A DNA stretch of 64,000 nt from a virus: positions 42,291-106,290 of IMG/VR virus record IMGVR_UViG_3300025096_002712. One strand, 5' to 3'. A program made the translations under genes and the position numbers. The stretch's first letter is position 1. Each line of letters starts with the position of its first letter. Shown piece after piece: positions 3 to 49,036 of this stretch. The notes beneath the pieces are model-generated. The model did not search any database. It was not told where the DNA came from and saw nothing but the letters and a program-made list of their open reading frames with translations.

Positions 3-3000
3 ATTTTTGATGGTTCTGGAACTGCATATAGTGATGAGATAGTTCACCTTGGAGATGCAAGAAATCAAATAGCAAGTTGGTCATTAAGTACATCTCAAAT
101 TTCAAGTAATAATCTTATATTAGATTCGAGTGGAATCATACAAACATCAGATTTTGCAAGTGGTGTTAAGGGTTGGAGAATAACATCGGCAAATAATGGT
201 GAGGCAGAATTTGAAAAGGTTACTATTAGAGGAACATTGGCTACTACTGTATTTGAAAAAGAATCTGTAAGTGCCGTAGGTGGTCAATTATATGTAGCCA
301 ATTCAACTATTATATCACAATCAACACAACTAGCAGCATCAGATACGACAATGAGTGTTGCAAATGTAGGTGGGTTTACTGGTAGTTACAATAATAATAA
401 TGGGGAAGTTATATCTATTAAGAAAGTTACCGACACAGGATTTACAACAGAGTATGTTTTAATTCAAAGTGCATCAAGAGATAATCCTTCAAGTGATAAA
501 GATTTAAGAGGTAAGTTATATGTAGTTCGTGGATATAGTGGTTCAACACCAGCAGATAGTAGTTCTCTTGGAGATGCTGCACAATCAGCTCAGACTTATG
601 AAAATGGTCAAGTAATTGTTTCAACAGGTCGCGTCAATACTGGATATATTAGATTAAATGCTAATCCAAATGATACTACAACACCTTATATTGATATTGT
701 TGAAAGAACTGGTTCTGCAATTTATGATGTAAGTTTAAAGGCAAGACTTGGGGATTTAAGTGGTTTAAGTAGTGGATTATTATATGGAAATACTTCTCCT
801 GGATTTGGATTATTTACAGAAAATGTATTCTTACAAGGTGCCATAACAGCCACAACTGGTTCATTTACAGGAATTGTACATATCAGAACTGATGCAAGTA
901 ATCAGATAAAAATGGGTACTAATGTTAATGGTAACGCCGATGGATTTTCCTTAAATAATAATAACTTTTGGTATACGACTGGTGATTTTAGAGTAGGTGG
1001 TGCTAGTAGTAATTATTTTTACATATCTGGTTCTACAATAGATATAAAAACAGATACATTAGTTGCAAGTGGAAGTTCAATACAATTAAAAACACCAAAC
1101 TTTTATTTTGGTGATAGTTCCAATTATATAAGTGGAAGTGGTGGAAAAGTAGCAATAGTAAATACAGGTACAACAACCATAAGTGGAAGTGCAGTAAATA
1201 TCCAAACACCTAAGTTTTATTTTGGAAACTCTCAAAATTTCATAAGTGGTTCAAATGATAATATTAAAATACAAAGTTATGGTACTACAACATTAAGTGG
1301 AAGTGAAGTAACAATAGAAACTCCATCATTTTTCTTTGGTAAGAAAAGTACACAATTTGTAAGCGGCTCAAATGGTTATGTAGAAATAAGCTCGTCTAAA
1401 TTTCATATACAGGCAGATGGTGATGTCATAGCAAATAATATAACAGCGTCTAATATATCAATGTCAGGTGTTGTAAATGCCAGCGAAGGTGGTATTGGTG
1501 GTTGGGTTATAGGATCTAATAAGATTTATACAGGAACGAATGAAACTGTAAGTGGATATACATCAGCCAATGGAAGATTAATATTATCTTCAAGTGGTGC
1601 AATTCATGCAAAAGGATTTTATGTTACAAAAGGTGGAAATGCATCTTTTAGTGGTTCTATATCTTCAAGTGAAGGTAATATAGCTGGTTGGACAATAGAT
1701 GCAGATGAAATAAAATCACCTGGTAGTACGGTAGTATTAGACTCAGATTCGAGTAATGGACAAATAAAATTAGGTTCAGCAACAGCTCTTAATACTGGTG
1801 ATGGTATTTACATGGATGGTGGTGGTAACTTTAGAGCCGGCGACGCAAATGGTAAGAGAATTCAATGGGATGGTACTAATATAACAGTAAGTGCTTCTGA
1901 TTTCTTTTTCGGAGATAATTCAAATTATATAAGTGGAAGTGGTGGAAACTTAGCCATACAAAATACAGGTACAACAACTATAAGTGGAAGTGCAGTAAAT
2001 ATCCAAACACCTAAGTTTTTCATGGGTGGAAGTAGTCAATATGTTAGTGGATCCAATGGAAACATCGAAATCAGTTCTTCTAATTTCCATCTTTCATCAA
2101 GTGGTGATGTTACAATGGCGGGAACTATTACTGCAACCGAGGGAGCAATAGGTGGTTCTACTATAACATCCGACGCATTAGCTTATTCACCATATTGGAG
2201 AATATCATCTTCTGCAGATACATCAGATCCTGTATCATTTATATCATCAAGTGCATTTAAAGTATCGGCTGGTGGTAATATAACTGGTTCGAGTGTTTTA
2301 TTCGATGGTGGAAAAGTCGGTGGTTGGACAATTACAGAAAATCAATTAGAGGCCAATAATATTAAAATAAATGCAGCAAGTGGTTACATTGAAGCAGGAG
2401 AGTTGAGTAATGTTAATGATATTGATGACACATCAGTAGGATTTTTCGCAAATAAAGATGGTGAAGTACTAATTAAAGCTGGAACTTCCGCAAATAAAAA
2501 TTATATGCAGTTCAAAAATGGTACTTTAGATATCAATAGTGATAAAGTACATATCAGCGGAAGTCAGATAACATTGAAAACTCCTGATTTTTATTTTGGT
2601 GATAGTTCCAATTATATAAGTGGTAGTGGTGGAAACTTAGCCATAGTAAATACTGGAACCACAACCATAAGTGGAAGTGCAGTAACAATTGAAACACCAA
2701 GATTCTTTTTGGGTCAGAAAAGTACACAATATATAAGTGGTTCACTCGGAAATGTAGAGATTAGTTCTTCAAAATTTCATTTACAAGCAGATGGTGATGT
2801 CATAGCAAATAATATAACGGCATCTAATATATCAATGTCAGGTGTTGTAAATTCAAGTGCTGGTACAATTGGTGGATGGAAAATATTACCTGGGGTATTA
2901 AAATCACCTGGTGAGAATGTTATATTGTCCGCATCAAATGGTGGTTATATATCACTTGGTGCAACACCACCCATAACAGCATCAAGTGGTGTCGGTATAT

Positions 3001-4178
3001 TCCTATCTGGTTCAGGTGATTTATTAGTTGGCGATAGTGGTGGTAATAAGATTCAATATGATGCATCTGTAGGTTCTATTAATATGAAGTCTCGTACTTT
3101 TAATTTAGATGCAACAACAATAGTTGTGGATTCTGCTACAAATAATGGTAAAATGGCACTTGGTGGTACACCACCAACTTCTGTTGCATCAACAGTTACT
3201 GGAAGTTATCTTGATGGGTTTGGAAATGTTTTATTTAGACAGAGTGCAGATGATTATTTAAAATTTACCAATAGAAAGTTGGATATGCATGCTAAAAGCT
3301 TTTTCTTGGGTGGAGCATCACAATATGTAAGTGGAAGTGGTGGAAACTTAAAAATATATAGTACTGGAGATACAACACTTAGTGGAAGTTCTGTTACGGT
3401 AGAAACACCTAAGTTTTTCTTAGGTAAACAAGGTTCTCAATATGTAAGTGGAAGTAACAATCTTCTTGAGATAAGCTCATCTAAGTTTCATTTGAAAAAT
3501 GATGGTAGTGTTACAATGACTGGTAATGTTACTGCTACTACTGGAGAAATTGGTGGTTATGTAATAAGTAGTACAGCTATGTCTGCTTCATCAGGTGGTG
3601 TTATTATTACAACAAATGCAAATGCTGACATTTATCAAGGTGGTGGAGCCTATCTCGACAATGTACCATATATGTATGCAGAAAATGCTATATTTGGTGA
3701 TTGGGATAACTACTTTAGAGTTTTTGATGGTAGAATGTACGCAGGTAAAGGAATACAAACTCAGGGAATTTGGTTAGATGCAAATGATACGACCTTAAAA
3801 TTAGGTGCTGATAATCCAAAACTCATGACATACACATCTAAAACTGGAATATTCTTATCGGGATCTGGACATTTTAGAGTTGGTTCACCTACTGGTTCAA
3901 GGGTATCATTTGACACTACAAACCTTATAATAAGTACCAGTAATTTTGATGTTATAGGTGGTGCAGTAACCGCAAGCGCTGGTTCAATTGCAGACTGGAC
4001 AATTACGACATCAAGTTTGGAATCAAACACGGATGACCTTAGAGGACTTAAACTGAAACCAGGGGATAGAGTAGTTGGATACGGGCCCACGGCACATACA
4101 AAACAGACTATATCTGGTTCGTTTAGTTTTGGAGTTTTACCAACACCTCCAGGTGAAGGTGGCGGAATAGCTTGGTAA
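3..4178 (+). CDS. Large Ser/Gly-rich repeat-built tail fibre/virion structural protein (5'-truncated)
   Basis: Frame is open from position 3 (IFDGSG...GWRITSANNGEAEFEKVTIRGTLATTVFE), so the TTG at 237 is internal. Contains GxIGGW-type and TPxF(F/Y)xG-x-YISGS repeats typical of phage fibres and sits next to S74 fibre genes. Confidence 0.75.
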   Translation: MFDGSGTAYSDEIVHLGDARNQIASWSLSTSQISSNNLILDSSGIIQTSDFASGVKGWRITSANNGEAEFEKVTIRGTLATTVFEKESVSAVGGQLYVANSTIISQSTQLAASDTTMSVANVGGFTGSYNNNNGEVISIKKVTDTGFTTEYVLIQSASRDNPSSDKDLRGKLYVVRGYSGSTPADSSSLGDAAQSAQTYENGQVIVSTGRVNTGYIRLNANPNDTTTPYIDIVERTGSAIYDVSLKARLGDLSGLSSGLLYGNTSPGFGLFTENVFLQGAITATTGSFTGIVHIRTDASNQIKMGTNVNGNADGFSLNNNNFWYTTGDFRVGGASSNYFYISGSTIDIKTDTLVASGSSIQLKTPNFYFGDSSNYISGSGGKVAIVNTGTTTISGSAVNIQTPKFYFGNSQNFISGSNDNIKIQSYGTTTLSGSEVTIETPSFFFGKKSTQFVSGSNGYVEISSSKFHIQADGDVIANNITASNISMSGVVNASEGGIGGWVIGSNKIYTGTNETVSGYTSANGRLILSSSGAIHAKGFYVTKGGNASFSGSISSSEGNIAGWTIDADEIKSPGSTVVLDSDSSNGQIKLGSATALNTGDGIYMDGGGNFRAGDANGKRIQWDGTNITVSASDFFFGDNSNYISGSGGNLAIQNTGTTTISGSAVNIQTPKFFMGGSSQYVSGSNGNIEISSSNFHLSSSGDVTMAGTITATEGAIGGSTITSDALAYSPYWRISSSADTSDPVSFISSSAFKVSAGGNITGSSVLFDGGKVGGWTITENQLEANNIKINAASGYIEAGELSNVNDIDDTSVGFFANKDGEVLIKAGTSANKNYMQFKNGTLDINSDKVHISGSQITLKTPDFYFGDSSNYISGSGGNLAIVNTGTTTISGSAVTIETPRFFLGQKSTQYISGSLGNVEISSSKFHLQADGDVIANNITASNISMSGVVNSSAGTIGGWKILPGVLKSPGENVILSASNGGYISLGATPPITASSGVGIFLSGSGDLLVGDSGGNKIQYDASVGSINMKSRTFNLDATTIVVDSATNNGKMALGGTPPTSVASTVTGSYLDGFGNVLFRQSADDYLKFTNRKLDMHAKSFFLGGASQYVSGSGGNLKIYSTGDTTLSGSSVTVETPKFFLGKQGSQYVSGSNNLLEISSSKFHLKNDGSVTMTGNVTATTGEIGGYVISSTAMSASSGGVIITTNANADIYQGGGAYLDNVPYMYAENAIFGDWDNYFRVFDGRMYAGKGIQTQGIWLDANDTTLKLGADNPKLMTYTSKTGIFLSGSGHFRVGSPTGSRVSFDTTNLIISTSNFDVIGGAVTASAGSIADWTITTSSLESNTDDLRGLKLKPGDRVVGYGPTAHTKQTISGSFSFGVLPTPPGEGGGIAW
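1085..3490 (+). repeat. Intragenic modular repeats with near-identical DNA copies
   Basis: 1101-1135 equals 2589-2623 (35 nt identical); 1413-1478 vs 2787-2852 (66 nt, 2 mismatches); 1160-1218 vs 1961-2019 (1 mismatch). The protein unit TPxFFxGxxxxYISGSxGxxxI recurs in four blocks. Confidence 0.9.
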
Positions 4179-4222
4179 CATAATGAAAAAATTATTAATA
4201 TATATAATAAAGGAGTTTTAAA

Positions 4223-5608
4223 ATGGCACAAATTTTACCATTTAAATTAAATATTGAAACCGTAAAAGGCCATACAATATCATATGCAACATCATCATTT
4301 GCAAAAACAGATGAGGCCGGCCTTAGTGGATCTGTTATTTTAAGTAGAATAGATTCTATGCCTTCTATATCTTATAGTTCAAACGAAGTAATAGGAGGTG
4401 CAGCCTCACCGGCACACACTTTTTCACATGCAAATAATATTTGGATTTCTGCTTCAATGAATAGTACACATCACGGGTCAGGTTCAATTACATTTCATCA
4501 TACAGATTCATCGGATGTGAATGATAGATTAAAAAGATATAGATTTTTTGGTGATAAAGTATGTGCTGTTCTTGGATTACCTTCACGTCATTGGATATAT
4601 CCAGTCAATTTTCAATTGTCCGATGCAACTGGTGTAGCAAATTATTTTGCTGGGGATGTATCTGCAGACTCTTTGAATGTTGCAAATAGTTTTAATATGT
4701 CACCGCTAGCCTCATCTACATCACATGTCAGACTTAATGCTACATCAGGAAGTAATGATGTGTTTTTCTTAGTTTCAAGTGGATCAGGTGCCTTTCAAAA
4801 AAATATGATACAGATTGGGTATAATACAGATGATGATAAGTTTGTTATACGAGGTGGAACTGGAGAAAGTAGTCAAGGGGCTTATATTGATGATTTCATA
4901 AGTGTAACATCTAATTATGTCGATTCGTGGTATTTCAGACAAAAAGCAGTTACTGATTCTTATATAAAGCTTTATAGTGATAGTTTCACCTATAAATCAG
5001 AAGGTGAGGATTGTGTATATTTTGAGAAAATATCATCTAGCCCTCCAAGACGGAGATATAGGTTTGGTAATCCAGGCGTCAATGGTGTTCCTTCTGAAGT
5101 AGGCATTGAATCAGATTTCATTTTTTCTGCATCAGGATCTGCTAATGGTATGAATTATACAATTTGTGCTAAAGGTGAAAAAGATGAGGGTTTTGTTGGA
5201 ATACGAGAACAGAGTCCGTCTTATCCACTTGAAGTTTCCGAGCACGTTTCAAATATATCTATATACGCAGAATATGATGTAGCAGCTTATTCGGATATTA
5301 GAGTTAAAACGGATATAGAAACTATTACTGAACCATTAGATAAAGTATTAAAATTAAGAGGTGTTACTTTTAGAAGAACTGATGATAGTGCAAGTGATAG
5401 AGTAATGATGGGATTAATTGCACAAGAAACCGAACCTATTGTACCTGAAGTTGTTGTTACAAATGAAAATCCTGAAAGTGGTAAACGATATGGACATAAA
5501 TCAATTTCATATGGAAACCTTGTAGGATTATTAATAGAGGCAGTAAAAGAACAACAAGAACAAATAGAAGAATTAAAACAACAAGTAAAGGAGATAAAAG
5601 ATGGTTAA
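4223..5608 (+). CDS. Tail fibre protein with C-terminal peptidase S74 intramolecular chaperone
   Basis: YSDIRVKTDI...KLRGVTF...GLIAQE...VPEVV...YGNLVGLLIEAVKEQQEQIEELK; SD AAGGAG upstream. Confidence 0.85.
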   Translation: MAQILPFKLNIETVKGHTISYATSSFAKTDEAGLSGSVILSRIDSMPSISYSSNEVIGGAASPAHTFSHANNIWISASMNSTHHGSGSITFHHTDSSDVNDRLKRYRFFGDKVCAVLGLPSRHWIYPVNFQLSDATGVANYFAGDVSADSLNVANSFNMSPLASSTSHVRLNATSGSNDVFFLVSSGSGAFQKNMIQIGYNTDDDKFVIRGGTGESSQGAYIDDFISVTSNYVDSWYFRQKAVTDSYIKLYSDSFTYKSEGEDCVYFEKISSSPPRRRYRFGNPGVNGVPSEVGIESDFIFSASGSANGMNYTICAKGEKDEGFVGIREQSPSYPLEVSEHVSNISIYAEYDVAAYSDIRVKTDIETITEPLDKVLKLRGVTFRRTDDSASDRVMMGLIAQETEPIVPEVVVTNENPESGKRYGHKSISYGNLVGLLIEAVKEQQEQIEELKQQVKEIKDG

Positions 5609-5891
5609 ATGGGGTGGTAAAGAAAATACAATAATACCAAAATGTGTATGTCCAACAAGTGGAGTAATATATTTGTCTGAAATAAGACAAGAACTTGAAT
5701 CAACGAGTAATTCAAATGATTATGGTAATGGGCCATGGACTACTAATACGACAACATTAAAAAATTGTAATCTCTTCGTGTATGATAGTAGAAATACTAA
5801 TTCAGATGATTATCCAAATAGTTCAGAACCACATAAGATGACAGAGTGGTATAGTTATCATCATAACGCAACAAGTGGTATGGGGATGTAA
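5601..5891 (+). CDS. Small virion-associated protein (fibre-tip/attachment motif)
   Basis: PTSGVIYLSEIRQEL...PHKMTEWY resembles the PxSGx(I/L)SLxxI...P(H/I)xMSEFY motif of small proteins that follow S74 fibres; overlaps the upstream stop. Confidence 0.5.
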   Translation: MVKWGGKENTIIPKCVCPTSGVIYLSEIRQELESTSNSNDYGNGPWTTNTTTLKNCNLFVYDSRNTNSDDYPNSSEPHKMTEWYSYHHNATSGMGM

Positions 5892-6304
5892 TGAATAAAT
5901 TATTTCATAATAATAAAATTGAAGTTAGGGATTCATCTATACATGGACGAGGAGTTTTTGCAAAAGAAGATATTAAAAGTGGTGAAATCTTAGAAGAATG
6001 TCATTATATTGTGGTAGATGATGGTAATTCACACGATATGCCACTTTATAAATGGCGTCGTTTAACAGATAGTAATATACAAATTGATGAACGGAAATTT
6101 CAATGGCCTAAAGGTGAAGATTTTGAAAAATATACAATACCATTTGGATTTGGTACTATATACAATAGTGTATTAAACGAAGAAGAAAGAAGTGTTAATT
6201 GGGAAAATGATTTAGATAGAGATATTTATAGATTTTTTACAGTTAAAGATGTAAAAAAAGATGAAGAACTTTTATTATATTATCATAATGGCAAATTTAA
6301 ATAA
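5891..6304 (+). CDS. SET-domain protein (putative lysine methyltransferase)
   Basis: IEVRDSSIHGRGVFAKEDIKSGEILEEC...GFGTIYNS...KDVKKDEELLLYY. The canonical NHS motif reads NSV. Confidence 0.8.
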   Translation: MNKLFHNNKIEVRDSSIHGRGVFAKEDIKSGEILEECHYIVVDDGNSHDMPLYKWRRLTDSNIQIDERKFQWPKGEDFEKYTIPFGFGTIYNSVLNEEERSVNWENDLDRDIYRFFTVKDVKKDEELLLYYHNGKFK

Positions 6305-6319
6305 AAAGGGTAAATAGAA

Positions 6320-6763
6320 ATGGCTTTTACAGATAGAGGAGCATATTTAGATACATCGGAAAGGGTTCACATAGGTGGAACTGGTGATCCTTCTGTATCG
6401 TTGAAAGTAACAGGTGAAGTATATGTTACAAACAATATTACTGCCTATTATTCATCAGACATAAGTTTGAAAGATAATATCAGACCGATAGAAAGTGCCA
6501 TTTTTAAGGTCAAACAAATCAGAGGTGTTACCTTTGATTGGAATAAAAAATCAGGAAAAATTGAACAAGAAAAAGGTCATGATGTAGGTTTAATTGCACA
6601 AGAAGTTGAAAAGGTTTTACCAGAAGTTATTCAGATTCGTGAAGATGGAATCAAGGCAATTGCATATGAAAAGGTTGTACCACTATTAGTAGAAGCCATT
6701 AAAGAACAACAAACTCTTATTGAGGATTTATCAAATAGAATAAAGACATTAGAGGAAAGATAA
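6320..6763 (+). CDS. Mini-fibre with peptidase S74 chaperone
   Basis: About 45 aa N-terminal segment, then YYSSDISLKDNI...IRGVTFDW...VGLIAQEVEKVLPEVI...YEKVVPLLVEAIKEQQ. Confidence 0.85.
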   Translation: MAFTDRGAYLDTSERVHIGGTGDPSVSLKVTGEVYVTNNITAYYSSDISLKDNIRPIESAIFKVKQIRGVTFDWNKKSGKIEQEKGHDVGLIAQEVEKVLPEVIQIREDGIKAIAYEKVVPLLVEAIKEQQTLIEDLSNRIKTLEER

Positions 6764-7845
6764 TGGCACTACAAAGTGGATTTAAAATATTAGGTCTAAA
6801 TATTATAGATAGTGGTGGTGGTTATGGAACATCAAAAACTGGTAGTTTGAGAGCTAGAGATCCAGGTCAAGGAAATGGATTTTTAGGAAATTATTATTCT
6901 ACGGGTGGTAAAATAGTTTCTGCTTCAATATCAAATAAAGGTAAAAGTTATTCAAGTGGCTCTTGGGTACAACCGAACACGGCGATTAAAGGTGCAGTTA
7001 CTTCTATTTCAATTGGAACATATGCAGATCCAGCTACAGGATCTGGTTCAATAATATTACCAAACATTGGTATGGATATATCTATGAGTATATCTGATAT
7101 CAATAGAGAAAAGGGAATAGCAGCCACTACTGCAAATTCAGACATTCACGATTTATATGAAGATTTTTCATCAATAGCAGGTTCAGTTCATAGTGGTTTA
7201 GAGGGAAAACCAAATTTCGATTGGTGGCAAGGAGGTCCAGTTTCACAGTCAGCATCCCATCCTATAAGATTTGATGAATTTTATAATGCAAATTATTCAA
7301 TGTATGGTGGTGCAGGTTGTCTTGCAATAGGAACACCGATAACAATGGCAGATGGTTCTACTAAAAATGTAGAGGATGTAAATGTAGGGGATATGGTAAG
7401 GGCAGCAACAGTAAAAGGTATGCCATTAGATTTTGATGATGAAGATACTTGGTCTATTTGGACTGGTGTACCACACGGAAATCCACCTGGTTCAGTATGG
7501 GCTACCGCATATTATGATATACAAGAGATAAATCGAGTTACACCAGCAAGTGCGTCAGTTCAAGAGATTTATTTTGATTTTTATGATAATTATTATCTGA
7601 TAAATGGTTCTTTAAAGGCAACATATGAACATCCATTTTTTGTATTAAGAGATGGTAGTTATCATTTTAAAACAACAGCCAGTTTGTTACCTGGTGATAA
7701 GTTATTCAAAGATAATAACGAGTTTGAAGAAATAACATCACTTGAATTTGTACAAGAATCAATAGAAACAGTTAATCTTAATGTAGAAAATTTAGATGTT
7801 TATTTCGGTGGTGGTTATTTAATGCACAATGTTCATTCTAAATAG
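6763..7845 (+). CDS. Virion-associated protein with C-terminal Hint (BIL-type) domain
   Basis: Hint at 7318-7830: CLAIGTPITMADGSTKNVEDVNVGD...TYEHPF...VNLNVE...YFGGGYLMHN, followed only by VHSK-stop. Confidence 0.85.
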   Translation: MALQSGFKILGLNIIDSGGGYGTSKTGSLRARDPGQGNGFLGNYYSTGGKIVSASISNKGKSYSSGSWVQPNTAIKGAVTSISIGTYADPATGSGSIILPNIGMDISMSISDINREKGIAATTANSDIHDLYEDFSSIAGSVHSGLEGKPNFDWWQGGPVSQSASHPIRFDEFYNANYSMYGGAGCLAIGTPITMADGSTKNVEDVNVGDMVRAATVKGMPLDFDDEDTWSIWTGVPHGNPPGSVWATAYYDIQEINRVTPASASVQEIYFDFYDNYYLINGSLKATYEHPFFVLRDGSYHFKTTASLLPGDKLFKDNNEFEEITSLEFVQESIETVNLNVENLDVYFGGGYLMHNVHSK

Positions 7846-7853
7846 GAGTTATA

Positions 7854-8864
7854 ATGAGTTATGATGTTTATTACTCTACTGGAGGTGGTTCAGTAGTTTA
7901 TGGTGGAGCAGATATTTGGGTTAATAATTGGTTACGAGAAGTAGCCCCTAAATTAAATCATCCATCTAAATTACTAATTCATCGCCGTAGACCTGAAAAA
8001 GTAAAGGTAGAATTTGATTCACCAATAGAAGTTGTATGGCAAGGTGATCACCCAAAAGATTTCGAAGAAATAGCCTCGAAGGCTCGTAAGATTCATGTAT
8101 TACACGGATATTATACACCACATAGGATAATAGAAAGTAATAAAGATAAATTAGAATCAGTATGTATTCATGTATCAGTAGATTTATCGTTAAAGGCAGG
8201 ATTTCAATTAGGATTACCGAAGTTAATGCATTATGCAGCAAACGCATCTTGGGAAAAGAGAGTTTCAAAATGGGCAAAGAAGGTAGTGTGGATTGGGTTA
8301 GATAAGATTCCATTACATGATGAAGTAGGTATAATTGATTTACCAAATTATTACGAGTTTACACAAAATAAAAAAGTATGTATGAGTAATAAAGTTGGAT
8401 TTGCAGCAAGATGTGAAACTCGTAAATCACCACATTTCTTAGATGGTATTGATAGTTATTCTTTTACCGATCCAGAAGATTGGAGATGGTGGAAATTAAA
8501 TCTTGGGTTAGAGTTTAAAAATACTCGGTTATATCAATTTAAAAATAAAAATATTCATTGGTTTTTTAATAGAGAGGATTGGGGAATATCACATAGCTGT
8601 CATCTACATGAACCATTCGGTTATTCTATATTTCAAGCATTAGATTATGGAAAGTTACCTATATTACAAAAAGATTGGCTGTCAAACTATGATTATCCAT
8701 TCAGAGCTTTCAATAAGAAAGAGTTTGATGAACAATTACATAATATATCAGAGTTATCAGAGAAAGAAAGACAAGATTATTTGGATGGACTGAGAGATTA
8801 TTGTAGGAAGTATGATAATAAGGATGAATGGGTAGAGAAATATTTGGAAATATACAACGCATGA
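7854..8864 (+). CDS. GT-B fold glycosyltransferase (GT4-like)
   Basis: N-terminal GGADIWV; C-terminal HEPFGYSIFQALDYGKLPIL resembles the GT4 EPFG-x-EA-x-GxP motif; SD AGGAG. Confidence 0.7.
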   Translation: MSYDVYYSTGGGSVVYGGADIWVNNWLREVAPKLNHPSKLLIHRRRPEKVKVEFDSPIEVVWQGDHPKDFEEIASKARKIHVLHGYYTPHRIIESNKDKLESVCIHVSVDLSLKAGFQLGLPKLMHYAANASWEKRVSKWAKKVVWIGLDKIPLHDEVGIIDLPNYYEFTQNKKVCMSNKVGFAARCETRKSPHFLDGIDSYSFTDPEDWRWWKLNLGLEFKNTRLYQFKNKNIHWFFNREDWGISHSCHLHEPFGYSIFQALDYGKLPILQKDWLSNYDYPFRAFNKKEFDEQLHNISELSEKERQDYLDGLRDYCRKYDNKDEWVEKYLEIYNA

Positions 8865-8873
8865 TATTTATTA
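8865..8873 (+). promoter_or_regulatory. TATTTATTA promoter-like motif
   Basis: The same 9-mer occurs in intergenic gaps at 8865, 10470, 23118 and 59926. Confidence 0.5.
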
Positions 8874-8890
8874 ATAACACACAACACGGC

Positions 8891-8934
8891 ACGCGTATTA
8901 GACGAGAATCGTCTTTTTCATGCGTATTTTTTTT
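8891..8934 (+). terminator. Two-stem hairpin with U-tract (terminator/attenuator-like leader)
   Basis: ACGCGT(8891-96) pairs with ATGCGT(8920-25) enclosing AGACGA-GAA-TCGTCT(8900-14), followed by A-T8 and then the SD GGAG of the next gene. Confidence 0.55.
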
Positions 8935-8945
8935 GGAGAACTTTT

Positions 8946-10442
8946 TTGGCAACACCAACAGATGGAACTAAACTATCATTAGGAAAACTCGGTAGGGCAA
9001 CCGCCGTAGGTAATTCCGATTATACTTCTAAGACAAGTCTTAATGATGCTGGCAGAGATAGTGGAACTGATAAAACTAAGGTAAGTGATTTTTACATTGG
9101 TTCAGTAGATAATACTTTAGATGGTTATCCATATGTGGATGAACAAACAAATGAAACCTATACAATGACTTTCACTAATGAGAATAGTTTATTTCAATCT
9201 CGTATAGGTGGACGACACCAAAACTTTACTTGGAGTGGAAGTGCTTTATTTGCCCCACAATCAAATCAAGATTATACTGCAGTTTTTGCAGCAGGAACAA
9301 TAACAGACCACGCAACACCGAGTGTAAGTGAAAGTAATGTAGTTGTGGACTATGATTTTAATAATTGGGCAGATTCAAACACATTAGTTAGTTGGTCAGG
9401 TAGTGGGGCGAGTGTAATATCAAAGCATACTCTTGTAAGTCAATCACCATCTGGTTCTAATAATTTTGCAGTAAAGTTTAATACACAAGATAGTCATATA
9501 AGTCAGTCTTTAACAGTTAAAGGAAACTCTGTTTATAGAATTAGAGCAATGGCCTCATCTTCTAATCTTGATGAGGGAAATATAAATATGGAAATTAGTG
9601 GTGCTTATACTCAACAGACATTTAGAGGTATAGCAGGTAACGGTGAATGGAAAGAAACAAGAAATGATTTTTACACGAGTGGTTCTGCAGGAGTAACTCA
9701 AACCCTAAAACTTACTTTCACTGCAATATCAGCTTCTTCAGACCATAAACCACTATTAGATACGGTATTTTTTGAAAGATGGGAAGGTGCACATATGAGT
9801 GATACGAGTGTAGTTGTATCTGGTAAATATCATGATGCAGGACAGAGTGATGGGTTTAATGACCACGCTACACGATATAATACTGATATTACTAAAACTG
9901 TTGAAATACAAGATACATATGGTGGACTTGCAATAGCCTGTTTCTTACCAGGAACTTTAATATTAATGTCAGATGAAACTACAAAACCCATTGAAGATAT
10001 TAATGTGGGTGATGAAGTAATGTCATTAGATTTACCTGGACTTCCAGATGAAGATTTAGGATATTTAGAGTGGAAGGCTTATACAATGAGACCAATGGAT
10101 AATTTAGATGAAGTGATAGAAAGGTATAAGAAAACTGCAAATGTAGAACATTTATTTTATGATTATATGGATGGTTATTATAGTATTAATAATGGATACT
10201 TAAAAATTACGAGAGAACACGATCTTTTTATATATGATAATGGTATGTGGAGATGGATGACACCAAATGAAATAAGTGGTGGTATGAAATTATTTAGTTA
10301 TGAGGGCGAAATAATAAATATAGATTCGATAGAATGGGTAGAAGGTGAAGTTGAAGTTGTAAATTTTGATGTAGAACCATTGGATGTATATTTTGCAGGT
10401 GGAGTATTAGTTCACAACAAAGGAGCAAGTTCTGAACCATAA
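8946..10442 (+). CDS. Virion-associated protein: tip motif, CBM4/9-like beta-sandwich, C-terminal Hint (BIL-type) domain
   Basis: TTG start with SD GGAG. LSLGKL...KVSDFY at the N-terminus; DFNNW...ISQSLTVKGNSVYRI...LDTV (CBM-like); Hint at 9939-10418 CFLPGTLI...ITREH...VVNFDVE...YFAGGVLVHN, then KGASSEP-stop. Confidence 0.8.
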   Translation: MATPTDGTKLSLGKLGRATAVGNSDYTSKTSLNDAGRDSGTDKTKVSDFYIGSVDNTLDGYPYVDEQTNETYTMTFTNENSLFQSRIGGRHQNFTWSGSALFAPQSNQDYTAVFAAGTITDHATPSVSESNVVVDYDFNNWADSNTLVSWSGSGASVISKHTLVSQSPSGSNNFAVKFNTQDSHISQSLTVKGNSVYRIRAMASSSNLDEGNINMEISGAYTQQTFRGIAGNGEWKETRNDFYTSGSAGVTQTLKLTFTAISASSDHKPLLDTVFFERWEGAHMSDTSVVVSGKYHDAGQSDGFNDHATRYNTDITKTVEIQDTYGGLAIACFLPGTLILMSDETTKPIEDINVGDEVMSLDLPGLPDEDLGYLEWKAYTMRPMDNLDEVIERYKKTANVEHLFYDYMDGYYSINNGYLKITREHDLFIYDNGMWRWMTPNEISGGMKLFSYEGEIINIDSIEWVEGEVEVVNFDVEPLDVYFAGGVLVHNKGASSEP

Positions 10443-10499: not shown

Positions 10500-11210
10500 A
10501 TGTCAATACTAAATCGTGGATATATATACGATTCAATAACAAGAAATGAAGATTCAGGTTCAGTATCATATAGATGGACTCATGGTGCTAATGACACTTA
10601 TATGGGCACTGGTATATTTTATTATGCCATTCCATATTTTCTAAAGGCACGAGTATGTGTTTGTCTTGGTAGTGGTGGTGGATATGTGCCACGATTGATG
10701 GTTGATTGTGTTCATGAATTAAATGAAGTTGATATGTATGGTGAGAATAAATATGGTGAAGTCTATGTTGTTGATGCGACAAATGGTTTTAATGGTGAAG
10801 TTGATTGGTCTGATGAGGATAGTTTTTTACGAGAAAAGTTTAATCCAAAATTTTTAAACACCACTACGGAAGATGCATTCTATAACTTTTTTGTTAAACG
10901 GGATATCAAAATAGATTATTTACATATAGATGCAGACCATACTTATGAGGGTTGTAAACTTGACTTTGATTTATATTCTACGATAATGAACGAAAATGGA
11001 ATTATATCAATACACGATACAGATAGAAAATATTGGGAAAACTTTGGAACTTATGATGGAGAGGAACATGATTCCTGTACGGGTCCAAGTGAAGTTATAA
11101 ATGAAATCAGTAATAAATGGGAAGTATTTAATTTGTTTGATTATAAAGAAAAAAATGAAGTTTTACCTTCTTCTGGTTTAACTATATTGAGAAGAAAAGA
11201 TGAGATATAG
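10500..11210 (+). CDS. Class I SAM-dependent methyltransferase (Methyltransf_24-like)
   Basis: CLGSGGG motif I; IDYLHIDADHTYEG...DF...NGIISIHD. Confidence 0.8.
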   Translation: MSILNRGYIYDSITRNEDSGSVSYRWTHGANDTYMGTGIFYYAIPYFLKARVCVCLGSGGGYVPRLMVDCVHELNEVDMYGENKYGEVYVVDATNGFNGEVDWSDEDSFLREKFNPKFLNTTTEDAFYNFFVKRDIKIDYLHIDADHTYEGCKLDFDLYSTIMNENGIISIHDTDRKYWENFGTYDGEEHDSCTGPSEVINEISNKWEVFNLFDYKEKNEVLPSSGLTILRRKDEI

Positions 11211-13668
11211 ACCAACAAAGTTTACCATAGAAGAACAACAGGATATACGAGAACGATATAGTGAATGGTTAAAACCAGAAAATATTATTTGGGTAGAAAA
11301 GGAATATAAAGATAATATACAATATTATGAATACCAAGAAATAGAAAAGTTTATTGATAAACATTTTAATTTTGCAAAAAGTTATGCAGAAAAAATGTGG
11401 GTATTAGAAAAAATAAAGGATTGGAATTCTCATACTTCTCAATATATTGATAGTAGAATAGGTAATTATAAAATAAATGATTTTAATGATGAAACACTTC
11501 AAAGAATTATATTGGAAGAAATAGAACACGGTGGTGCAGAAGGAAAGGGATTTTTAAGTGATTTTATAGAAAATAGAATTAAAGATATGGAACTTTCTTC
11601 ATTTCAAGAAGAACTAAGTGTTAGACAAAAGTTGTGTGATTTAGAGTTTCATACAACACCTTATGTTGAAAAAAGAATAGGAGATTATGAAATAGAAGAT
11701 TTAGATGATGAATTAGTAAAACGAATAAAATTAGAAGAATGTGAAAAATTAAATAGCCCATTTATATTAAAACAAATAAAAAAACATATGGGAAAAATAC
11801 ATCCTGATGATGAACTCTCAAAGAGACAGATATTAAACGAGTGTGAGAAACATACTAATGATTATGTTGCAAAAAGAATAAAAGAATTTCAACCACTAAC
11901 TTTAAAAACTGAAAATCACGAAGATTTATATGAACAGTTACAATGGAGAGAAGATTTAGAGCAAATAATTGATCATAGATCTGAGTTTATAGATCAAAAT
12001 ATAAAATTTTATAAAGGTCGTGGTGTAGAAATAACAACACCCACACAGGAACTCGAACACAGATTAAAACTTGAAGAATGTGAAAAGTTTAATACAGACT
12101 ATATTTCAAGAGAAACAGCAAGATTAAAGGATGAATATTTAATTCGTGATCCACAAGAAGAACTTAAACATAGAATGAATCTTGCATTTTTCGAAGATAA
12201 TGTAAAGGATAAAGAAAAAATAGCAAGTAAAGAAACATTTTGGGATATGATTTCAGTTCATGGATTAGAAAATTTAAATCTACTCAAGGAAGAATTAAAT
12301 AATGTAGGTAATGGTTTTTGTTTAGCAAAATGGAATCAAGTTAGTATTCTTTTACAGACAGGTCAAACTCATAGTTGTCACCACCCAAGACCTCATGTAG
12401 TTCCTAAAAGAGAATTGGAAAACAATCCATCTGCACTTCACAATACATATTTCAAAAAGATGCAAAGAAAGACGATGTTAAAAGGTGGTCGTCCAAAGGA
12501 ATGTGATTATTGTTGGAATGTAGAAGATGCTAATCCAGGAGCATTTAGTGATAGGATTATGAAAAGTGGTGAGGCCTGGGCATTTCCATACTTCGATAAG
12601 ATTAAAAGGTCAGATCCAGAAGAAAATACTAATCCATCTTATGTAGAAGTTAGTTTTTCTAATCAATGTAATATGAGTTGTGGTTATTGTGATGTCAAAA
12701 GTAGTTCCAATTGGCAACACGAAATAGCAACAAAAGGACATTATCCTACGAGTGGAATGTATAACAATACTGAATGGATGGAAAGGGAAGGAATAGTTCC
12801 GATACCACATACTAAACCCAATCCATACAGAGATGCTTTTTGGAAATGGTGGCCAGACTTATTCCCAACACTTCATACTTTTAGAATAACTGGAGGTGAA
12901 CCACTTTTACATAAAGATACATTTAAAGTTTTAGATTATCTAATAGAAAATCCAAAAGTAAATCCTATGTTAGAAATGTCTGTTAATAGTAATTTATGTG
13001 CACCACAACATTTATTTGAAGAGTTTGTGGATAAAGTTAAGTATATTACAGATAGAGACTTAGTTTGGAATTTTGCACTATTTACAAGTATTGAGGCGGA
13101 CGGGAAACACGCAGAATATATGAGAGATGGAATGGACGCTGATAGATTTTGGAATAACTTAGATTATTTTTTAACCAAATGTCAAAAACCAGAGGCAACT
13201 ATAATGGCAACTTATAATCTTACAAGTGTTTCAACTTATCACGAAGTGATTAAGAAGGTATTTGAATTAAAAAAGAAACATTATAATGGCCAAAGATACA
13301 GACATTATGGTATAATACTGGACACGGCATATCTTAGACATCCAGAGTTCTTACAAGTTCGTTTATTGTCTACACATTGGATTGATAAAATACGAGAAGA
13401 TGTAAAATTAATGGAGAGTTTAGCGGAAGAAAAATATACTCATATTTATGGACATGGACATGCAGGATTTTATGATTTTGAAAGAGAAAAATTAAGACGA
13501 GTATTGGATTGGGTAGATGCCCCACTCGATGATGTAAAATGGTTAATGAAAATGAGGAAAGATTTTGTATTATTTATCGATGAGTTTGATATAAGACGAG
13601 GAAAAAACTTCTTAGAAACTTTTCCAGAGATGGAAGATTTTTACAATTCTTGTAAGAAGTTGATATAA
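11200..13668 (+). CDS. Radical SAM protein with Cys-rich auxiliary segment and N-terminal helical repeat array
   Basis: CNMSCGYC motif; ITGGEPLL; upstream FCLAKW...SCHH...ECDYCW; about 33-aa repeats ELxxRxxLEExEKxxxxYIxxRI in the first ~330 aa. Confidence 0.85.
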   Translation: MRYRPTKFTIEEQQDIRERYSEWLKPENIIWVEKEYKDNIQYYEYQEIEKFIDKHFNFAKSYAEKMWVLEKIKDWNSHTSQYIDSRIGNYKINDFNDETLQRIILEEIEHGGAEGKGFLSDFIENRIKDMELSSFQEELSVRQKLCDLEFHTTPYVEKRIGDYEIEDLDDELVKRIKLEECEKLNSPFILKQIKKHMGKIHPDDELSKRQILNECEKHTNDYVAKRIKEFQPLTLKTENHEDLYEQLQWREDLEQIIDHRSEFIDQNIKFYKGRGVEITTPTQELEHRLKLEECEKFNTDYISRETARLKDEYLIRDPQEELKHRMNLAFFEDNVKDKEKIASKETFWDMISVHGLENLNLLKEELNNVGNGFCLAKWNQVSILLQTGQTHSCHHPRPHVVPKRELENNPSALHNTYFKKMQRKTMLKGGRPKECDYCWNVEDANPGAFSDRIMKSGEAWAFPYFDKIKRSDPEENTNPSYVEVSFSNQCNMSCGYCDVKSSSNWQHEIATKGHYPTSGMYNNTEWMEREGIVPIPHTKPNPYRDAFWKWWPDLFPTLHTFRITGGEPLLHKDTFKVLDYLIENPKVNPMLEMSVNSNLCAPQHLFEEFVDKVKYITDRDLVWNFALFTSIEADGKHAEYMRDGMDADRFWNNLDYFLTKCQKPEATIMATYNLTSVSTYHEVIKKVFELKKKHYNGQRYRHYGIILDTAYLRHPEFLQVRLLSTHWIDKIREDVKLMESLAEEKYTHIYGHGHAGFYDFEREKLRRVLDWVDAPLDDVKWLMKMRKDFVLFIDEFDIRRGKNFLETFPEMEDFYNSCKKLI

Positions 13669-14387
13669 TGTTTGGAGTATTAACAAATAAAGGACAAGTT
13701 AATTATGTTTCATTAGATGATTTTATTTCTATTGATAAGATGAATTATTTCGAAACATATTTTGAGAAACAATTTGATAAGTTTTGTAATGATCTTCCAC
13801 GAATTGTAGAGAGAAATGGATGGGCTGCAAATGAGTATTCGAAGGATGCTATAAATGATTCAGATAGAGTTTATTTATTCAATTCTTTAATGAGTACTTG
13901 GTATGATGACATTATTCCAAGAGATTATGCGTGGAAATTAGTAAAGACATATGTACCTGAATTTGTAGAATATTTATATGACAATGTATTGGATTATATG
14001 CATGGGTTTTTTATAAAACGCGAACTTCACAAGCCTATGGAATTTCATAGAGATTGGGGTGATAATGGACTTGATCCAACAGAAGAAGATTCACGAGGAA
14101 TGCAGGAAACTTGGATATGGTTTAGATTTTCGGATACTAAAAAACTTTATGTTTCAGACATAGATGGTGAACATGATGTTTCTAAAAGAATACCAATGGA
14201 ATCCTATGGTGCAGTATTTAATGGGTTAGATTATCATGGTTGTTATGATGGTTCGAGTGGATTTAGTGTAAGGATTAATGGTGGATTAAAACAAAATATC
14301 ATAGACGATACAGGGATTGATGTTACTACTTGGAAAGAATGGTATCCAGCTACTGGTCATTGGTTAGATGAGAAATTAACTCTATGA
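13668..14387 (+). CDS. Putative 2OG-Fe(II)/cupin-fold oxygenase
   Basis: HRD...FNGLDYHG...SVRING pattern (HxD...H facial triad). Confidence 0.45.
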   Translation: MFGVLTNKGQVNYVSLDDFISIDKMNYFETYFEKQFDKFCNDLPRIVERNGWAANEYSKDAINDSDRVYLFNSLMSTWYDDIIPRDYAWKLVKTYVPEFVEYLYDNVLDYMHGFFIKRELHKPMEFHRDWGDNGLDPTEEDSRGMQETWIWFRFSDTKKLYVSDIDGEHDVSKRIPMESYGAVFNGLDYHGCYDGSSGFSVRINGGLKQNIIDDTGIDVTTWKEWYPATGHWLDEKLTL

Positions 14388-15238
14388 GTATAAATTTAGT
14401 TACAGTTTGTGGTCATAATACCACAATGTTAAGACATATGTTGCAACATTACAAAGATTTTGTTGATGAAATCTATGTAGTTGTATATTTATCAACAGAC
14501 AAGGATAGAGTTTTATCTGAAGTCAAAGAAATCACTCGTGATTTAAATATTGATATACATAAGACGACAGTTGAAGAACCATTTAATTGGACAAGGGTTA
14601 CGGAGTTATATAATGAAACAAAGTTATTAAAACCAGATGATTGGTGGATTGTAGCAGATGATGATGAACTTCATGTATATCCAACACCAATCAATGAACT
14701 CATAGAAGATTGTGAAGAAAATGGTTATCAGTTTATTACAGGAGCATTTTTAGATAGGATCGGTGAAAGAGGTCGATTCCCAAAGATTGATGATGATAGT
14801 GATGTTTGGAAAGAGTTTCCATTGGCTGGTTCATTTAGATATCCAGTTTCAAATGCCTGTCCAAATAAAACTGTAGTGATGAAAGGTATTATACAAGTCA
14901 CTAATGGACAACATTATGCAATGGTAAACGATTTCCAAGATACTTATGGTGATAGGTGGATGCACGAGTTGAGATATCCAGTCGGTGGGTGTTTTATTCA
15001 AGTTCATCATTTTAAATGGGATATTTCAGTTATTGATAGAATAAGAGATGTTTCTCTTACAAAAAAAGATTACACATTTCATGATGAATATAAGAAAATG
15101 TTTGATTATATAATGGATAATTTTGGAACAATTAATATTAGAGATGAAAGATTTATGATAGAAAGAAGTGGTAAAAATTATTACGATTATCCATATTGGG
15201 ATAAAATAAGAACACAGGCTATAGAGTATAGAACATGA
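14384..15238 (+). CDS. GT-A glycosyltransferase (GT2-like, Glyco_tranf_2_4 type)
   Basis: MLQHY...VDEIYV; WWIVADDDE (DxD); GQH; VHHFKW. Confidence 0.7.
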   Translation: MSINLVTVCGHNTTMLRHMLQHYKDFVDEIYVVVYLSTDKDRVLSEVKEITRDLNIDIHKTTVEEPFNWTRVTELYNETKLLKPDDWWIVADDDELHVYPTPINELIEDCEENGYQFITGAFLDRIGERGRFPKIDDDSDVWKEFPLAGSFRYPVSNACPNKTVVMKGIIQVTNGQHYAMVNDFQDTYGDRWMHELRYPVGGCFIQVHHFKWDISVIDRIRDVSLTKKDYTFHDEYKKMFDYIMDNFGTINIRDERFMIERSGKNYYDYPYWDKIRTQAIEYRT

Positions 15239-16716
15239 AAAGATTAGCAGTTATACTACCATATAACGAGAGTCATATAGAAAACTTTACAGAACATTTT
15301 AGGGCTACTATACAAGAGGGTGAAGATTTATATTATAAATTATGTTTTATAAAACAAAAGTCTAATAGACCATTAAATAAAGGTAAGTTGTTTAATATTG
15401 GATATATGTTACATAAGGATAGTTTTGATTATTTTTGTTTTCACGATTCAGATTTAATACCAATTTCTGATGAATGTGATTATTCATATGAAGAAAAACC
15501 AATTTCATTAGTAGGTATGAGAGATAAAATAAAGTTTGGTGATCAAGAAAATTTAGAAGATTTTGATGATTATACTTTACCTTATGATGAGTATTTTGGT
15601 GGAGCAGTTTTATTTTCAAAAGAACATTTTCAAGAAGTTAATGGATACTCAAATGAATATTGGGGTGTTGGTTATGAAGATTATGATTTACTGCTTAGAT
15701 GTGTGGTTAAGGGATTGCCTATTAGAAAAGAGTTGGAAGTTGAACCATCAAAAACTTATGGAACTTTTAATGGTGTAAATTCGTATTTAAAAATACCAGC
15801 AAAAAATGCAAAAATTAGAAATGCAACTAATAAAAGTTTTACAATGTGTGGGTGGTTCAAGACTGACGGAGAACCACCGTATGGAGCTGATATAGATAGT
15901 AATAGATGTGAATATTTTATATTTGGTCGTCCAGGATATCATATGGGACTTTCTTATACTCATGGTGGATTCGCCAAGGGTGTAATTTGGATTAGGGAAC
16001 AGGGAAAAAGTGAAAGAAATGCATTAGTAATAAAAACTTTGTTAGGTGCAGACCAATGGCATCATATAGCACTTACTGTTGACGAAATGAAACAAGAGAT
16101 GATTCTTTATATAAATGGAATAGAAGTTGGTAAAGAATCTTATGATGGAGAAATCCTTCCATACCATAGTAAACCATATTATATTGGAGTCGGTGATCCA
16201 GATATAAATCATTGGAGAAACTATTTCGTGGGTAAAATTGCAGAAGTAGGATTATGGTCTGAATCATTAAAATCTGATGAAATTGTACATATTTTTAATA
16301 AGGGCATAGTTGATAATAGAGGTGAATATTCAACTTCTGCTTTACCAGTAGGAGTTTGGGATTTTAAAGGTGGATATTCAGATAGAACTTTTGATGTGTC
16401 TGGAAATGGAAATCATGCAAAGTTTAATAATATCGATTTTGCAAATAAATCGTTAAAAAGTAATACTGAGCGATATTTACCTTATAGAAGAAATGGTGCT
16501 TATGGTTTTATATCACATCCAAATGAATATTTAAATCTCGAAAATATAAAGAGAAGTCAACATCCTGAAATAATGACAAATCGTAATTCTTTTAATAAGA
16601 AAATTAGAAATCAAATGCAGGATATAGATAAAGATGGCCTATCATCAACAAGATTTCGGATAGTCAATAGAAAAGACTATCAAGGAAAACATGAAATAAT
16701 AGAAGTTGTAATATAA
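15235..16716 (+). CDS. GT7 (beta-1,4-galactosyltransferase-like) with inserted LamG domain
   Basis: VILPY; NKGKLFNIG; CFHDSDL; GGAV; VNGYSNEYWGVGYEDYD; LamG segment (WHHIALT, LYING, WDF, DVSGNGNHA); GT7 C-terminus DGLSS. Confidence 0.85.
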   Translation: MKRLAVILPYNESHIENFTEHFRATIQEGEDLYYKLCFIKQKSNRPLNKGKLFNIGYMLHKDSFDYFCFHDSDLIPISDECDYSYEEKPISLVGMRDKIKFGDQENLEDFDDYTLPYDEYFGGAVLFSKEHFQEVNGYSNEYWGVGYEDYDLLLRCVVKGLPIRKELEVEPSKTYGTFNGVNSYLKIPAKNAKIRNATNKSFTMCGWFKTDGEPPYGADIDSNRCEYFIFGRPGYHMGLSYTHGGFAKGVIWIREQGKSERNALVIKTLLGADQWHHIALTVDEMKQEMILYINGIEVGKESYDGEILPYHSKPYYIGVGDPDINHWRNYFVGKIAEVGLWSESLKSDEIVHIFNKGIVDNRGEYSTSALPVGVWDFKGGYSDRTFDVSGNGNHAKFNNIDFANKSLKSNTERYLPYRRNGAYGFISHPNEYLNLENIKRSQHPEIMTNRNSFNKKIRNQMQDIDKDGLSSTRFRIVNRKDYQGKHEIIEVVI

Positions 16717-16727
16717 GGAGAAAAATT

Positions 16728-17051
16728 ATGGCTACAAAGAAAAAAGAAACAGATGCAAGAGATGCTCTCGACGCTGGAACTACTAATGAAGGCAGTGAAC
16801 TTTCTGCAATAGCAGTTAAGTCATTGACCAATTTGGAAGAAAAGGTTGATGCAATCGATTGGAAACTATGGGAAATCTACAATATCGTAAAGACATATGT
16901 AGAAAATAATCCAGCAGGTTCATCAGCACCAGCCGTTTCACAACCACAAGCATCCGCAGCAGATATTGCTGGGGAGATTGCAAAAGCATTAGGTGGAGCA
17001 TCAGGCAAAGAGGAAAAGAAGTCAGCAGTATCTAAACTATTTGGGGGATAA
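16728..17051 (+). CDS. Small hypothetical protein (coiled coil plus Ala/Ser/Pro-rich linker)
   Basis: Strong SD AAGGAG; LEEKVDAIDWKLWEIYN helix; PAGSSAPAVSQPQASAA low-complexity region. Confidence 0.7.
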   Translation: MATKKKETDARDALDAGTTNEGSELSAIAVKSLTNLEEKVDAIDWKLWEIYNIVKTYVENNPAGSSAPAVSQPQASAADIAGEIAKALGGASGKEEKKSAVSKLFGG

Positions 17052-17054
17052 ACC

Positions 17055-21825: not shown

Positions 21826-21827
21826 TA

Positions 21828-23117: not shown

Positions 23118-23136
23118 TATTTATTAGTATGAAAAA
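23117..23136 (+). promoter_or_regulatory. ATATTTATTAGT-ATG motif, identical to 59925-59944
   Basis: Exact 20-nt match upstream of two paralogous B12 radical SAM genes; no SD present. Confidence 0.55.
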
Positions 23137-25808: not shown

Positions 25809-25819
25809 AAGGAGTTGGA

Positions 25820-26779: not shown

Positions 26780-26787
26780 GAGTTGAT

Positions 26788-33065: not shown

Positions 33066-33067
33066 TT

Positions 33068-36817: not shown

Positions 36818-36826
36818 GGAGTTATT

Positions 36827-42069: not shown

Positions 42070-42071
42070 AA

Positions 42072-43985: not shown

Positions 43986-43987
43986 AA

Positions 43988-46283: not shown

Positions 46284-46298
46284 TTATACTTATATATA

Positions 46299-46403: not shown

Positions 46404-46411
46404 ATTTTTTA

Positions 46412-49035: not shown

Positions 49036-49036
49036 T

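Follow-up and report, generated by a model that had tools for sequence, protein, structure and literature searches.

A Ser-ending tripeptide in excess on the outer tail proteins of one lineage of T4-like myoviruses, a putative site of O-glycosylation

Genomic setting of the tail module

The stretch analyzed here, the window (64,000 nucleotides; IMG/VR record IMGVR_UViG_3300025096_002712, positions 42,291 to 106,290), is the terminal 64 kb of one viral contig of 106,290 bp (CheckV completeness, 45%), and the subject is a degenerate tripeptide, [ST][GAS]S, with Ser-Gly-Ser (SGS) among its forms, in the tail-module proteins encoded there. A gp6-like baseplate wedge, a primase and a gp46/SbcC-like nuclease are encoded upstream of the window, and the contig was therefore assigned to a T4-like myovirus; the virus is marine and uncultured. 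Positions are those of the window unless the contig is named.

Five open reading frames (ORFs) of the tail module, all on the plus strand, are considered below. The window opens inside a giant fibre-like ORF (3..4178; whole ORF, contig 36341-46468), of which it holds the C-terminal 1391 of 3375 residues and which gave no match in Pfam, PHROGs or PDB. This is followed by a 461-residue tail fibre (4223..5608) with a C-terminal S74 intramolecular chaperone (Peptidase_S74, E = 7.6e-15; many PHROG tail-fibre families), by a 360-residue tail-module protein with a C-terminal Hint-like domain (6763..7845; weak Hint matches), by a conserved 336-residue fibre-module gene without a copy of the motif (7854..8864; a weak lead as a glycosyltransferase), and by a 498-residue tail-module protein composed of an N-terminal part, a DUF642-like beta-sandwich and a C-terminal Hint-like domain (8946..10442; weak DUF642 and Hint matches). 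A lone S74 intramolecular-chaperone gene (6320-6763, 147 residues) adjoins the fibre that carries its own S74 domain, and a SET-domain protein of 137 residues (5891-6304; Pfam E = 1.9e-8) is encoded amid the fibre genes.

Downstream of the tail module lies an island of about 53 kb of soluble glycan-building enzymes (10500..64000, plus strand; Pfam and NCBIfam), which includes three tandem GT7 (N + C) enzymes with a LamG/ConA-like domain (15235..20035, plus strand; Pfam).

Excess of the motif over composition

Expected counts in window ORFs were obtained from 2000 composition shuffles. The initial annotation had read the motif as a possible glycosylation sequon and had counted about 22 SGS in ORF 3-4178; on recount its SGS counts proved exact, and the contexts that it listed for the neighbours were reproduced. 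ORF 3-4178 contained 22 SGS against 3.75 expected (z, 9.8) and 47 motifs against 16.3 (z, 8.0). ORF 4223, in which SGS was the top-ranked tripeptide, contained 5 SGS against 0.63 (contexts LSGS, GSGS, TSGS, SSGS and SASGS) and 10 motifs against 3.06, and ORF 8946 contained 4 SGS against 0.42 (WSGS twice, PSGS and TSGS) and 6 motifs against 2.30. In ORF 6763 the motif was significantly enriched (8 against 1.9), and SGS alone was not (2 against 0.48; p = 0.08). The four window proteins together held 33 SGS against 5.4 expected, and the whole giant ORF (3375 residues) 40 against 7.3.

Over the whole contig, nine Ser-rich tail-module ORFs, five of them upstream of the window, hold 85 SGS. The expectation was about 13.5-13.6 by global shuffle, 16.6, 16.2 and 15.3 by local shuffles within 10, 15 and 30 residues, respectively, and 39.4 under a first-order Markov model; the maximum reached in 500 runs of the 10-residue local shuffle was 29. 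Global composition, local composition and dipeptide content were each ruled out as the cause by these shuffles and the Markov model, so that enrichment beyond Ser and Gly content, which had been set as a check on the proposal, held under all three kinds of model. The remaining ORFs of the contig, about 80, hold 4 SGS against 6.1 expected.

When all tripeptides were ranked without bias, SGS came first in six of the nine enriched proteins and second in a seventh, and BLAST sorted the nine into about six unrelated groups, which upholds the earlier observation that the motif recurs outside the repeats and in proteins without detectable homology. The description of the window neighbours as unrelated needs qualifying for ORFs 6763 and 8946, which share their C-terminal Hint half (32% identity over 250 residues) and are thus not fully unrelated. 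The motif had also been called nearly absent from about 50 downstream enzymes. It is indeed rare there (2 SGS against 4.0 and 13 motifs against 18.4 in 51 downstream ORFs), but this is what composition predicts, since these proteins are poor in Ser and Gly, and is not avoidance.

Nineteen of the 22 SGS of ORF 3-4178 lie inside four blocks and are not independent copies, because the blocks are paralogous; outside the blocks 3 SGS were found against 1.1 expected. The block unit of 38 residues, F[FY]FG..S.Y[IV]SGSGG..I...G.TT[IL]SGS.V.[IV][EQ]TP, has invariant SGS. The giant ORF also repeats a motif that closes each block, G.[IV][GA]GW.I....L, e.g., EGGIGGWVIGSNKIY and EGNIAGWTIDADEIKS. Over the nine proteins, the excess is about sixfold on outer tail and fibre proteins and is maintained by selection.

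Specificity of the signal

Observed and expected counts of related tripeptides were computed on the nine enriched proteins. SGS (85 observed, 13.6 expected), TGS (28, 9.1), SAS (31, 8.2) and SSS (31, 16.8) exceeded expectation, and counts for the other forms were as follows: SGT, 13 against 9.1; NGS, 2 against 7.0; DGS, 7 against 6.9; SGN, 6 against 7.0; SGD, 10 against 6.9; GGS, 12 against 11.3; STS, 8 against 11.1; and SNS, 1 against 8.6. The tag is accordingly directional and Ser-specific, with SGS, TGS and SAS enriched and SGT, NGS, DGS and SGN not enriched. A generic beta-turn of the Asx/Gly type, for which Asn, Asp and Gly should be equally favoured around the central Gly, was not recovered in the tripeptide counts of the nine proteins.

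The residue preceding SGS is aliphatic or aromatic in 53 of the 85 cases (background, 31%), and acidic residues are depleted around it, Asp and Glu together making up 4.6% of the positions within 4 residues of SGS against 11.0% in the background. The motifs are dispersed, with spacings from 17 to several hundred residues, and those set by repeat units are 17 to 22 residues apart.

In the enriched genes the pentanucleotide AGTGG stands in frame 0 in 126 of 136 cases. The codon AGT is over-used for the first Ser, and the preference for AGT before Gly is genome-wide. At the same conserved Ser positions both AGY and TCN codons were found, and Ser itself is therefore maintained across two-nucleotide switches. 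A DNA-level motif or a codon artefact was ruled out by the frame of AGTGG, the genome-wide AGT bias and the mixed codon families.

Conservation and spread of the excess

The g25175 baseplate family, one of the enriched families, has thousands of relatives in marine metagenomes. In an alignment of 120 homologues (mean per-site identity, 68%), five of its six SGS sites were more than 92% conserved. Aligned sites interchange only among SGS, TGS, SAS, SSS and SQS, the third Ser being near-invariant, and the degenerate form proposed at the outset, [S/T]-[G/A/S]-S, fits both these substitutions and the enrichment counts. Lineage-specific insertions are SGS-rich as well.

Five of the enriched families are covered by 80 related IMG/VR loci, and their orthologues there carry SGS at 5-15 times expectation; the gp6-like wedge of the relatives carries 2 SGS against 9.0. 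Orthologues of ORF 6763 have 2-5 SGS against about 0.35, and those of ORF 8946 have 2-4 against 0.3-0.8. Two cultured phages share the excess: Flavobacterium phage immuto (vB_FspM_immuto, NC_055915), which has the same syntenic module (one tail spike, 14 against 3.5) and whose gp106 is SGS-rich, and Microcystis phage Mel-JY01 (PP395634; 8 against 0.9, 5 against 0.36 and 5 against 0.37). In a 98%-complete relative of 186.6 kb (G001), the excess occurs only in tail-fibre and baseplate genes; nearly all of its other large proteins are without SGS, and none has an excess.

A further 74 contigs were found via the S74 domain. Their Ser-rich ORFs carry SGS at 3-4.5 times expectation, single fibres at up to tenfold, and some of these contigs build fibre shafts from a repeat of about 15-19 residues, P.G[IV][IV]SGSSQ[IV] (L106:2014-3942, L117:1189-3753). 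Searches of Pfam, PHROGs and, by sequence, PDB with shafts of the P.GVVSGSSQV type gave no match. The complete genomes in this set of contigs, four in number, have the g25175 family as well and were therefore placed in the same broad lineage.

As controls, the baseplate and fibre proteins of T4 contained 5 SGS against about 5 expected, the long fibre of Synechococcus phage S-CREM2 contained 3 against 2.3, two fibres of Vibrio phage nt-1 contained 6 against 1.1 and 2 against 0.9, and the S74 fibres of KP15 and BUCT194 showed a weak excess (4 against 1.4 and 3 against 1.2). Because the excess is absent in T4 and in the S-CREM2 fibre and weak in the other controls, it belongs to a single lineage and a single class of proteins and is not general to fibres. 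A tblastn search of cultured phages with an SGS-repeat fibre gave a match confined to the S74 domain, and a literature search turned up no earlier account of such a motif in the fibres of phages.

Structure prediction and family searches

The SGS-rich proteins matched no family in Pfam or PHROGs, and PDB sequence searches with the giant ORF and the g25175 family gave no match. An AlphaFold2 (AF2) model of g25175 had a mean predicted local distance difference test (pLDDT) score of 58.7; within the part of the model whose 10-residue blocks mostly average above 70, the SGS sites are placed at strand ends and one is placed in a hairpin turn. Compared with PDB, the model fold had no match at E <= 0.001 by Foldseek and a best Z of 4.5 by VIA-align, and comparison with BFVD returned uncharacterised phage proteins only. 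The AF2 model of a repeat block of the giant ORF had a pLDDT of 47 and was unusable.

The GT7 trio and the glycan island

Glycosyltransferases (GTs) are encoded by the phage itself, with three GT7 genes, a GT92 gene and GT2-like genes in the window and GT2-type genes in the relatives. The presence of three GT7 genes, noted in the initial annotation, was borne out by Pfam, which detected Glyco_transf_7N, Glyco_transf_7C and Laminin_G_3 domains in each. The sugar enzymes of the island comprise nucleoside diphosphate (NDP)-sugar dehydratases and epimerases (several of them SDR enzymes), a DegT aminotransferase and a uridine diphosphate (UDP)-sugar dehydrogenase; a carbamoyltransferase, dioxygenases, at least four B12-binding radical SAM enzymes and two further ORFs with radical-SAM matches were also found. 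A hydropathy scan of the island detected no multi-pass membrane protein, and none resembling a flippase or a polymerase.

The initial annotation had drawn an analogy with animal proteoglycans, which are glycosylated on Ser-Gly sites and whose linker is then extended by beta4GalT7, a GT7 enzyme. Xylosyltransferase sites of proteoglycans are Ser-Gly sites flanked by acidic residues. The two systems have in common Ser-Gly sites and, here in the window, GT7-family enzymes, but the depletion of acidic residues beside SGS described above is the opposite of the xylosyltransferase site, and relatives without GT7 keep the motif; the analogy is not supported. No xylosyltransferase or UDP-xylose synthase was assignable in the window, where the SDR enzymes scored far below every NCBIfam equivalog cut-off, that of UDP-xylose synthase among them, and GT14 was not searched.

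Relatives with and without the island were also compared, and any dependence of the motif on the GT7 trio or the island was contradicted. G001, immuto and Mel-JY01 retain the excess, and G001 shares nothing of the island except a weak epimerase match. GT7 is present in a close relative (G003); in G001, G002 and immuto just Glyco_transf_7C matches below the Pfam cut-off were seen. The island and GT7 serve as context here, and the excess does not require them. No phage with the excess and without any GT was found, the mid-sized contigs screened being just 12-26% complete and hence uninformative.

Candidate reader proteins

ORF 7854 belongs to a family with 585 IMG/VR relatives, which almost always stands directly after an SGS-rich fibre gene, as on 77 contigs (upstream neighbours, 331 SGS against 73.8 expected) and whose own members contain 0 SGS against 4.6. 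ORFs 6763 and 8946 stand on either side of ORF 7854 in all six close relatives examined. An assignment of ORF 7854 as a GT was rejected after searches of Pfam and NCBIfam, two PDB profile searches and an hhalign comparison with T4 alpha-glucosyltransferase (probability 0.2) were negative; the hints toward a GT are an automatic ESM Atlas cluster label and a GT-B-like motif recognised by eye, E.FG....QA...G.P.I, which has no profile support. Neither immuto nor G001 has ORF 7854, and both keep the excess.

A second candidate is a 205-residue GT-A protein of the relatives, with a Pfam GT2 match and a QIDADE motif, which adjoins a DegT aminotransferase and has 56-62% identity in immuto (L179:907-1530; 52406-53026 of the immuto record), G001 (L095:9188-9799) and G002 (L181:2058-2669), being more conserved than the baseplate proteins. 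All nine genomes that show the excess and are complete or nearly so contain it (immuto, Mel-JY01, G001, G002, G010-G013 and G017). It was found in none of the five control phages and, among 50,697 cultured phage records, in immuto and Mel-JY01 only. The records that contain it are essentially the same as those with the g25175 family. The co-occurrence of this protein with the excess is real but inseparable from ancestry, because all nine genomes belong to one lineage. For a 423-residue GT2 protein, co-occurrence with the excess did not hold. The 205-residue GT-A is a better candidate for priming than the GT7 enzymes.

Comparison with known systems

Virion glycosylation by phage-encoded GTs is described for mycobacteriophages (Freeman et al. 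2023, as summarised in PMC12619734), where glycans were shown chemically on the C-terminal tails of capsid and tail-tube subunits. The present case is alike in that a tailed phage with soluble GTs is proposed to decorate its own virion proteins, and different in that the candidate sites, known here from sequence, are internal, position-conserved tripeptides of baseplate and fibre proteins. Sites on C-terminal extensions of the capsid or tail-tube proteins were accordingly not what was found.

In the TibC/TibA and Aah/AIDA-I systems, many Ser residues in the loops of beta-helix passengers are O-glycosylated in the cytoplasm (PMC4358343, PMC3835316), and enzymes of the TibC type act on Ser in folded beta-helix repeats by recognising structural context rather than a linear sequon (PMC4358343). 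A Ser acceptor would be common to both, in repeats that are beta-rich here, whereas TibC is a dodecamer of a GT-B heptosyltransferase, and its substrates are secreted adhesins, not virion proteins. General scans, made without a dedicated search, gave no TibC/Aah-type Pfam match among the window ORFs. The virions of mycobacteriophages and Ser glycosylation by TibC would, by analogy, support reading the motif as a glycosylation site.

GtfA/GtfB prime serine-rich repeat (SRR) adhesins with O-linked N-acetylglucosamine in the cytoplasm on repeats of the S-x-S type, which are extended stepwise by soluble GTs (PMC6973325, PMC7948813). The window proteins resemble these targets in having Ser in S-x-S-like sites, but SRR regions are long, of low complexity and largely unstructured, whereas the motifs here are dispersed and conserved in beta-rich proteins. 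No long low-complexity SRR region was seen in the enriched proteins; their motifs are dispersed, and the excess survives 10-residue local shuffles.

A structural precedent is offered by T4. The needle of its gp37 fibre contains HxH tripeptides that bind iron. HSH was the top tripeptide of gp37 in our ranking, and there a short i/i+2 tripeptide is over-represented in a fibre protein for structural reasons, as one might be here; the HxH tripeptides belong to one domain of one protein, whereas [ST][GA]S runs across at least six unrelated protein families.

Interpretation of the motif

At aligned sites the tripeptide [ST]-[GA(S)]-S is kept, and it is limited to this lineage and, within it, to a single class of virion proteins. 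The best explanation is that it tags those baseplate and fibre proteins that face outward in a single broad lineage of aquatic T4-like myoviruses, to which immuto and Mel-JY01 belong. A universal folding advantage should not be lineage-specific, and we therefore infer that a lineage-specific factor that reads the tag best explains the pattern. Pointing to such a reader are the restriction to one lineage and protein class, the recurrence in unrelated folds, the strict third Ser with Ser or Thr in first place and Gly, Ala, Ser or Gln in the middle, the absence of any enrichment in turn formers with Asn or Asp, and the many soluble glycan enzymes.

The most likely reader would be a soluble GT of the phage that acts in the cytoplasm and attaches an O-linked sugar to the invariant third Ser, either before the tail is assembled or while assembly is under way; the 205-residue GT-A conserved in the lineage would prime the site, and the 53-kb island would then elaborate the glycan. 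O-glycosylation of the tag is plausible, and is put forward here as a tentative, putative assignment. More doubtful, though possible, is the wider proposal that the whole highly abundant lineage (two cultured members and thousands of metagenomic relatives) attaches O-linked glycans, inside the host cytoplasm, to the outer proteins of its baseplate and fibres at a defined, directional sequon, [ST]-[GA]-S, with the small GT-A priming and variable islands of up to about 53 kb extending the chains, so that each phage would have its own sugar coat.

Several points weigh against the glycosylation of the tag. The glycan is a prediction from sequence; neither the island nor GT7 nor ORF 7854 is needed for the excess; the 205-residue GT-A was not found in this 45%-complete contig, and all nine genomes that have it also share the g25175 baseplate family; and the conserved GTs could act on DNA or on host glycans instead. 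Moreover, the sites are position-conserved, often follow an aliphatic residue, lie in beta-rich repeats and are placed at strand ends in the sole usable model, all of which would fit a structural role.

A purely structural explanation is nearly as likely as glycosylation. On this account aliphatic-[ST]-[GA]-S would be an unmodified strand-end, tight-turn or packing element of the beta-rich folds of the lineage, spread by repeat duplication and module exchange and retained by folding constraints. The placement of 19 of the 22 SGS of the window giant ORF in duplicated 38-residue units with a 17- to 22-residue spacing, the hydrophobic residue ahead of the motif, the strand-end and hairpin positions in the better-scored stretch of the g25175 model, the near-invariant conservation of sites and the independence from island, GT7 and ORF 7854 are all consistent with it, as are the use of other structural tripeptides by other fibres (HSH in gp37) and the P.G[IV][IV]SGSSQ[IV] repeat shafts of the lineage. 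A general turn former should, however, favour Asn, Asp and Gly at the flanks, and NGS, DGS, SGN and SGD were all found near or below expectation or little above it; Ala, Ser or Gln is tolerated in the middle while the flanking hydroxyl residues are fixed, which argues against a Gly-dependent turn; and this one tripeptide ranks first in several proteins between which no homology was detected, and the T4 proteins of equivalent function do without it.

Some other lineage-specific reader is improbable by comparison. It might be a chaperone of fibre or baseplate assembly, a different modification of Ser (phosphorylation, acylation, or chemistry of the radical-SAM or dioxygenase kind), or the direct binding of host surface glycan by pairs of Ser. 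The specificity and lineage restriction of the tag speak for it to the same degree as for glycosylation, the family of ORF 7854 stands directly after SGS-rich fibre genes on the 77 contigs, and the island holds many tailoring enzymes without an assigned substrate; but immuto and G001 keep the excess and lack ORF 7854, no kinase or acyltransferase is conserved alongside the motif, and a chaperone signal of this kind has no precedent. An artefact of Ser/Gly composition, low complexity, a DNA motif or codon bias, to which the Ser- and Gly-rich make-up of the enriched proteins and the over-used AGT might point, is refuted by the 10-residue local shuffles, the frame and genome-wide bias of the codons and the presence of both codon families at conserved sites, and retains next to no probability.

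As a glycosylation sequon, the tag would be the first case of an acceptor motif being defined for the glycosylation of phage virions. It would explain what the very large islands of soluble glycan-building enzymes, common in the genomes of marine phages, are for, and would bear on host recognition, particle stability and escape from recognition by hosts or grazers in the ocean. As a structural element, it would be a building block, not described before, in fibre and baseplate proteins that have no solved relative. In either case, the tripeptide is a simple sequence marker of outward-facing tail proteins in a lineage for which Pfam and PHROGs give nothing. With two of its members in culture, the question can be put to a direct test.

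Other observations on the contig

Within the island, two adjacent small ORFs (49037-50154) match the E1 dehydrogenase and the transketolase pyrimidine-binding halves, respectively; their position beside an RfbH-like DegT enzyme suggests the synthesis of a branched or dideoxy sugar. Upstream of the window, three tandem paralogues (contig 24055-27369; L002:5055-8369) have a common C-terminal motif, YIT.VGLYN..NELLAVAKLS.P, and this family has five matching places in Mel-JY01.

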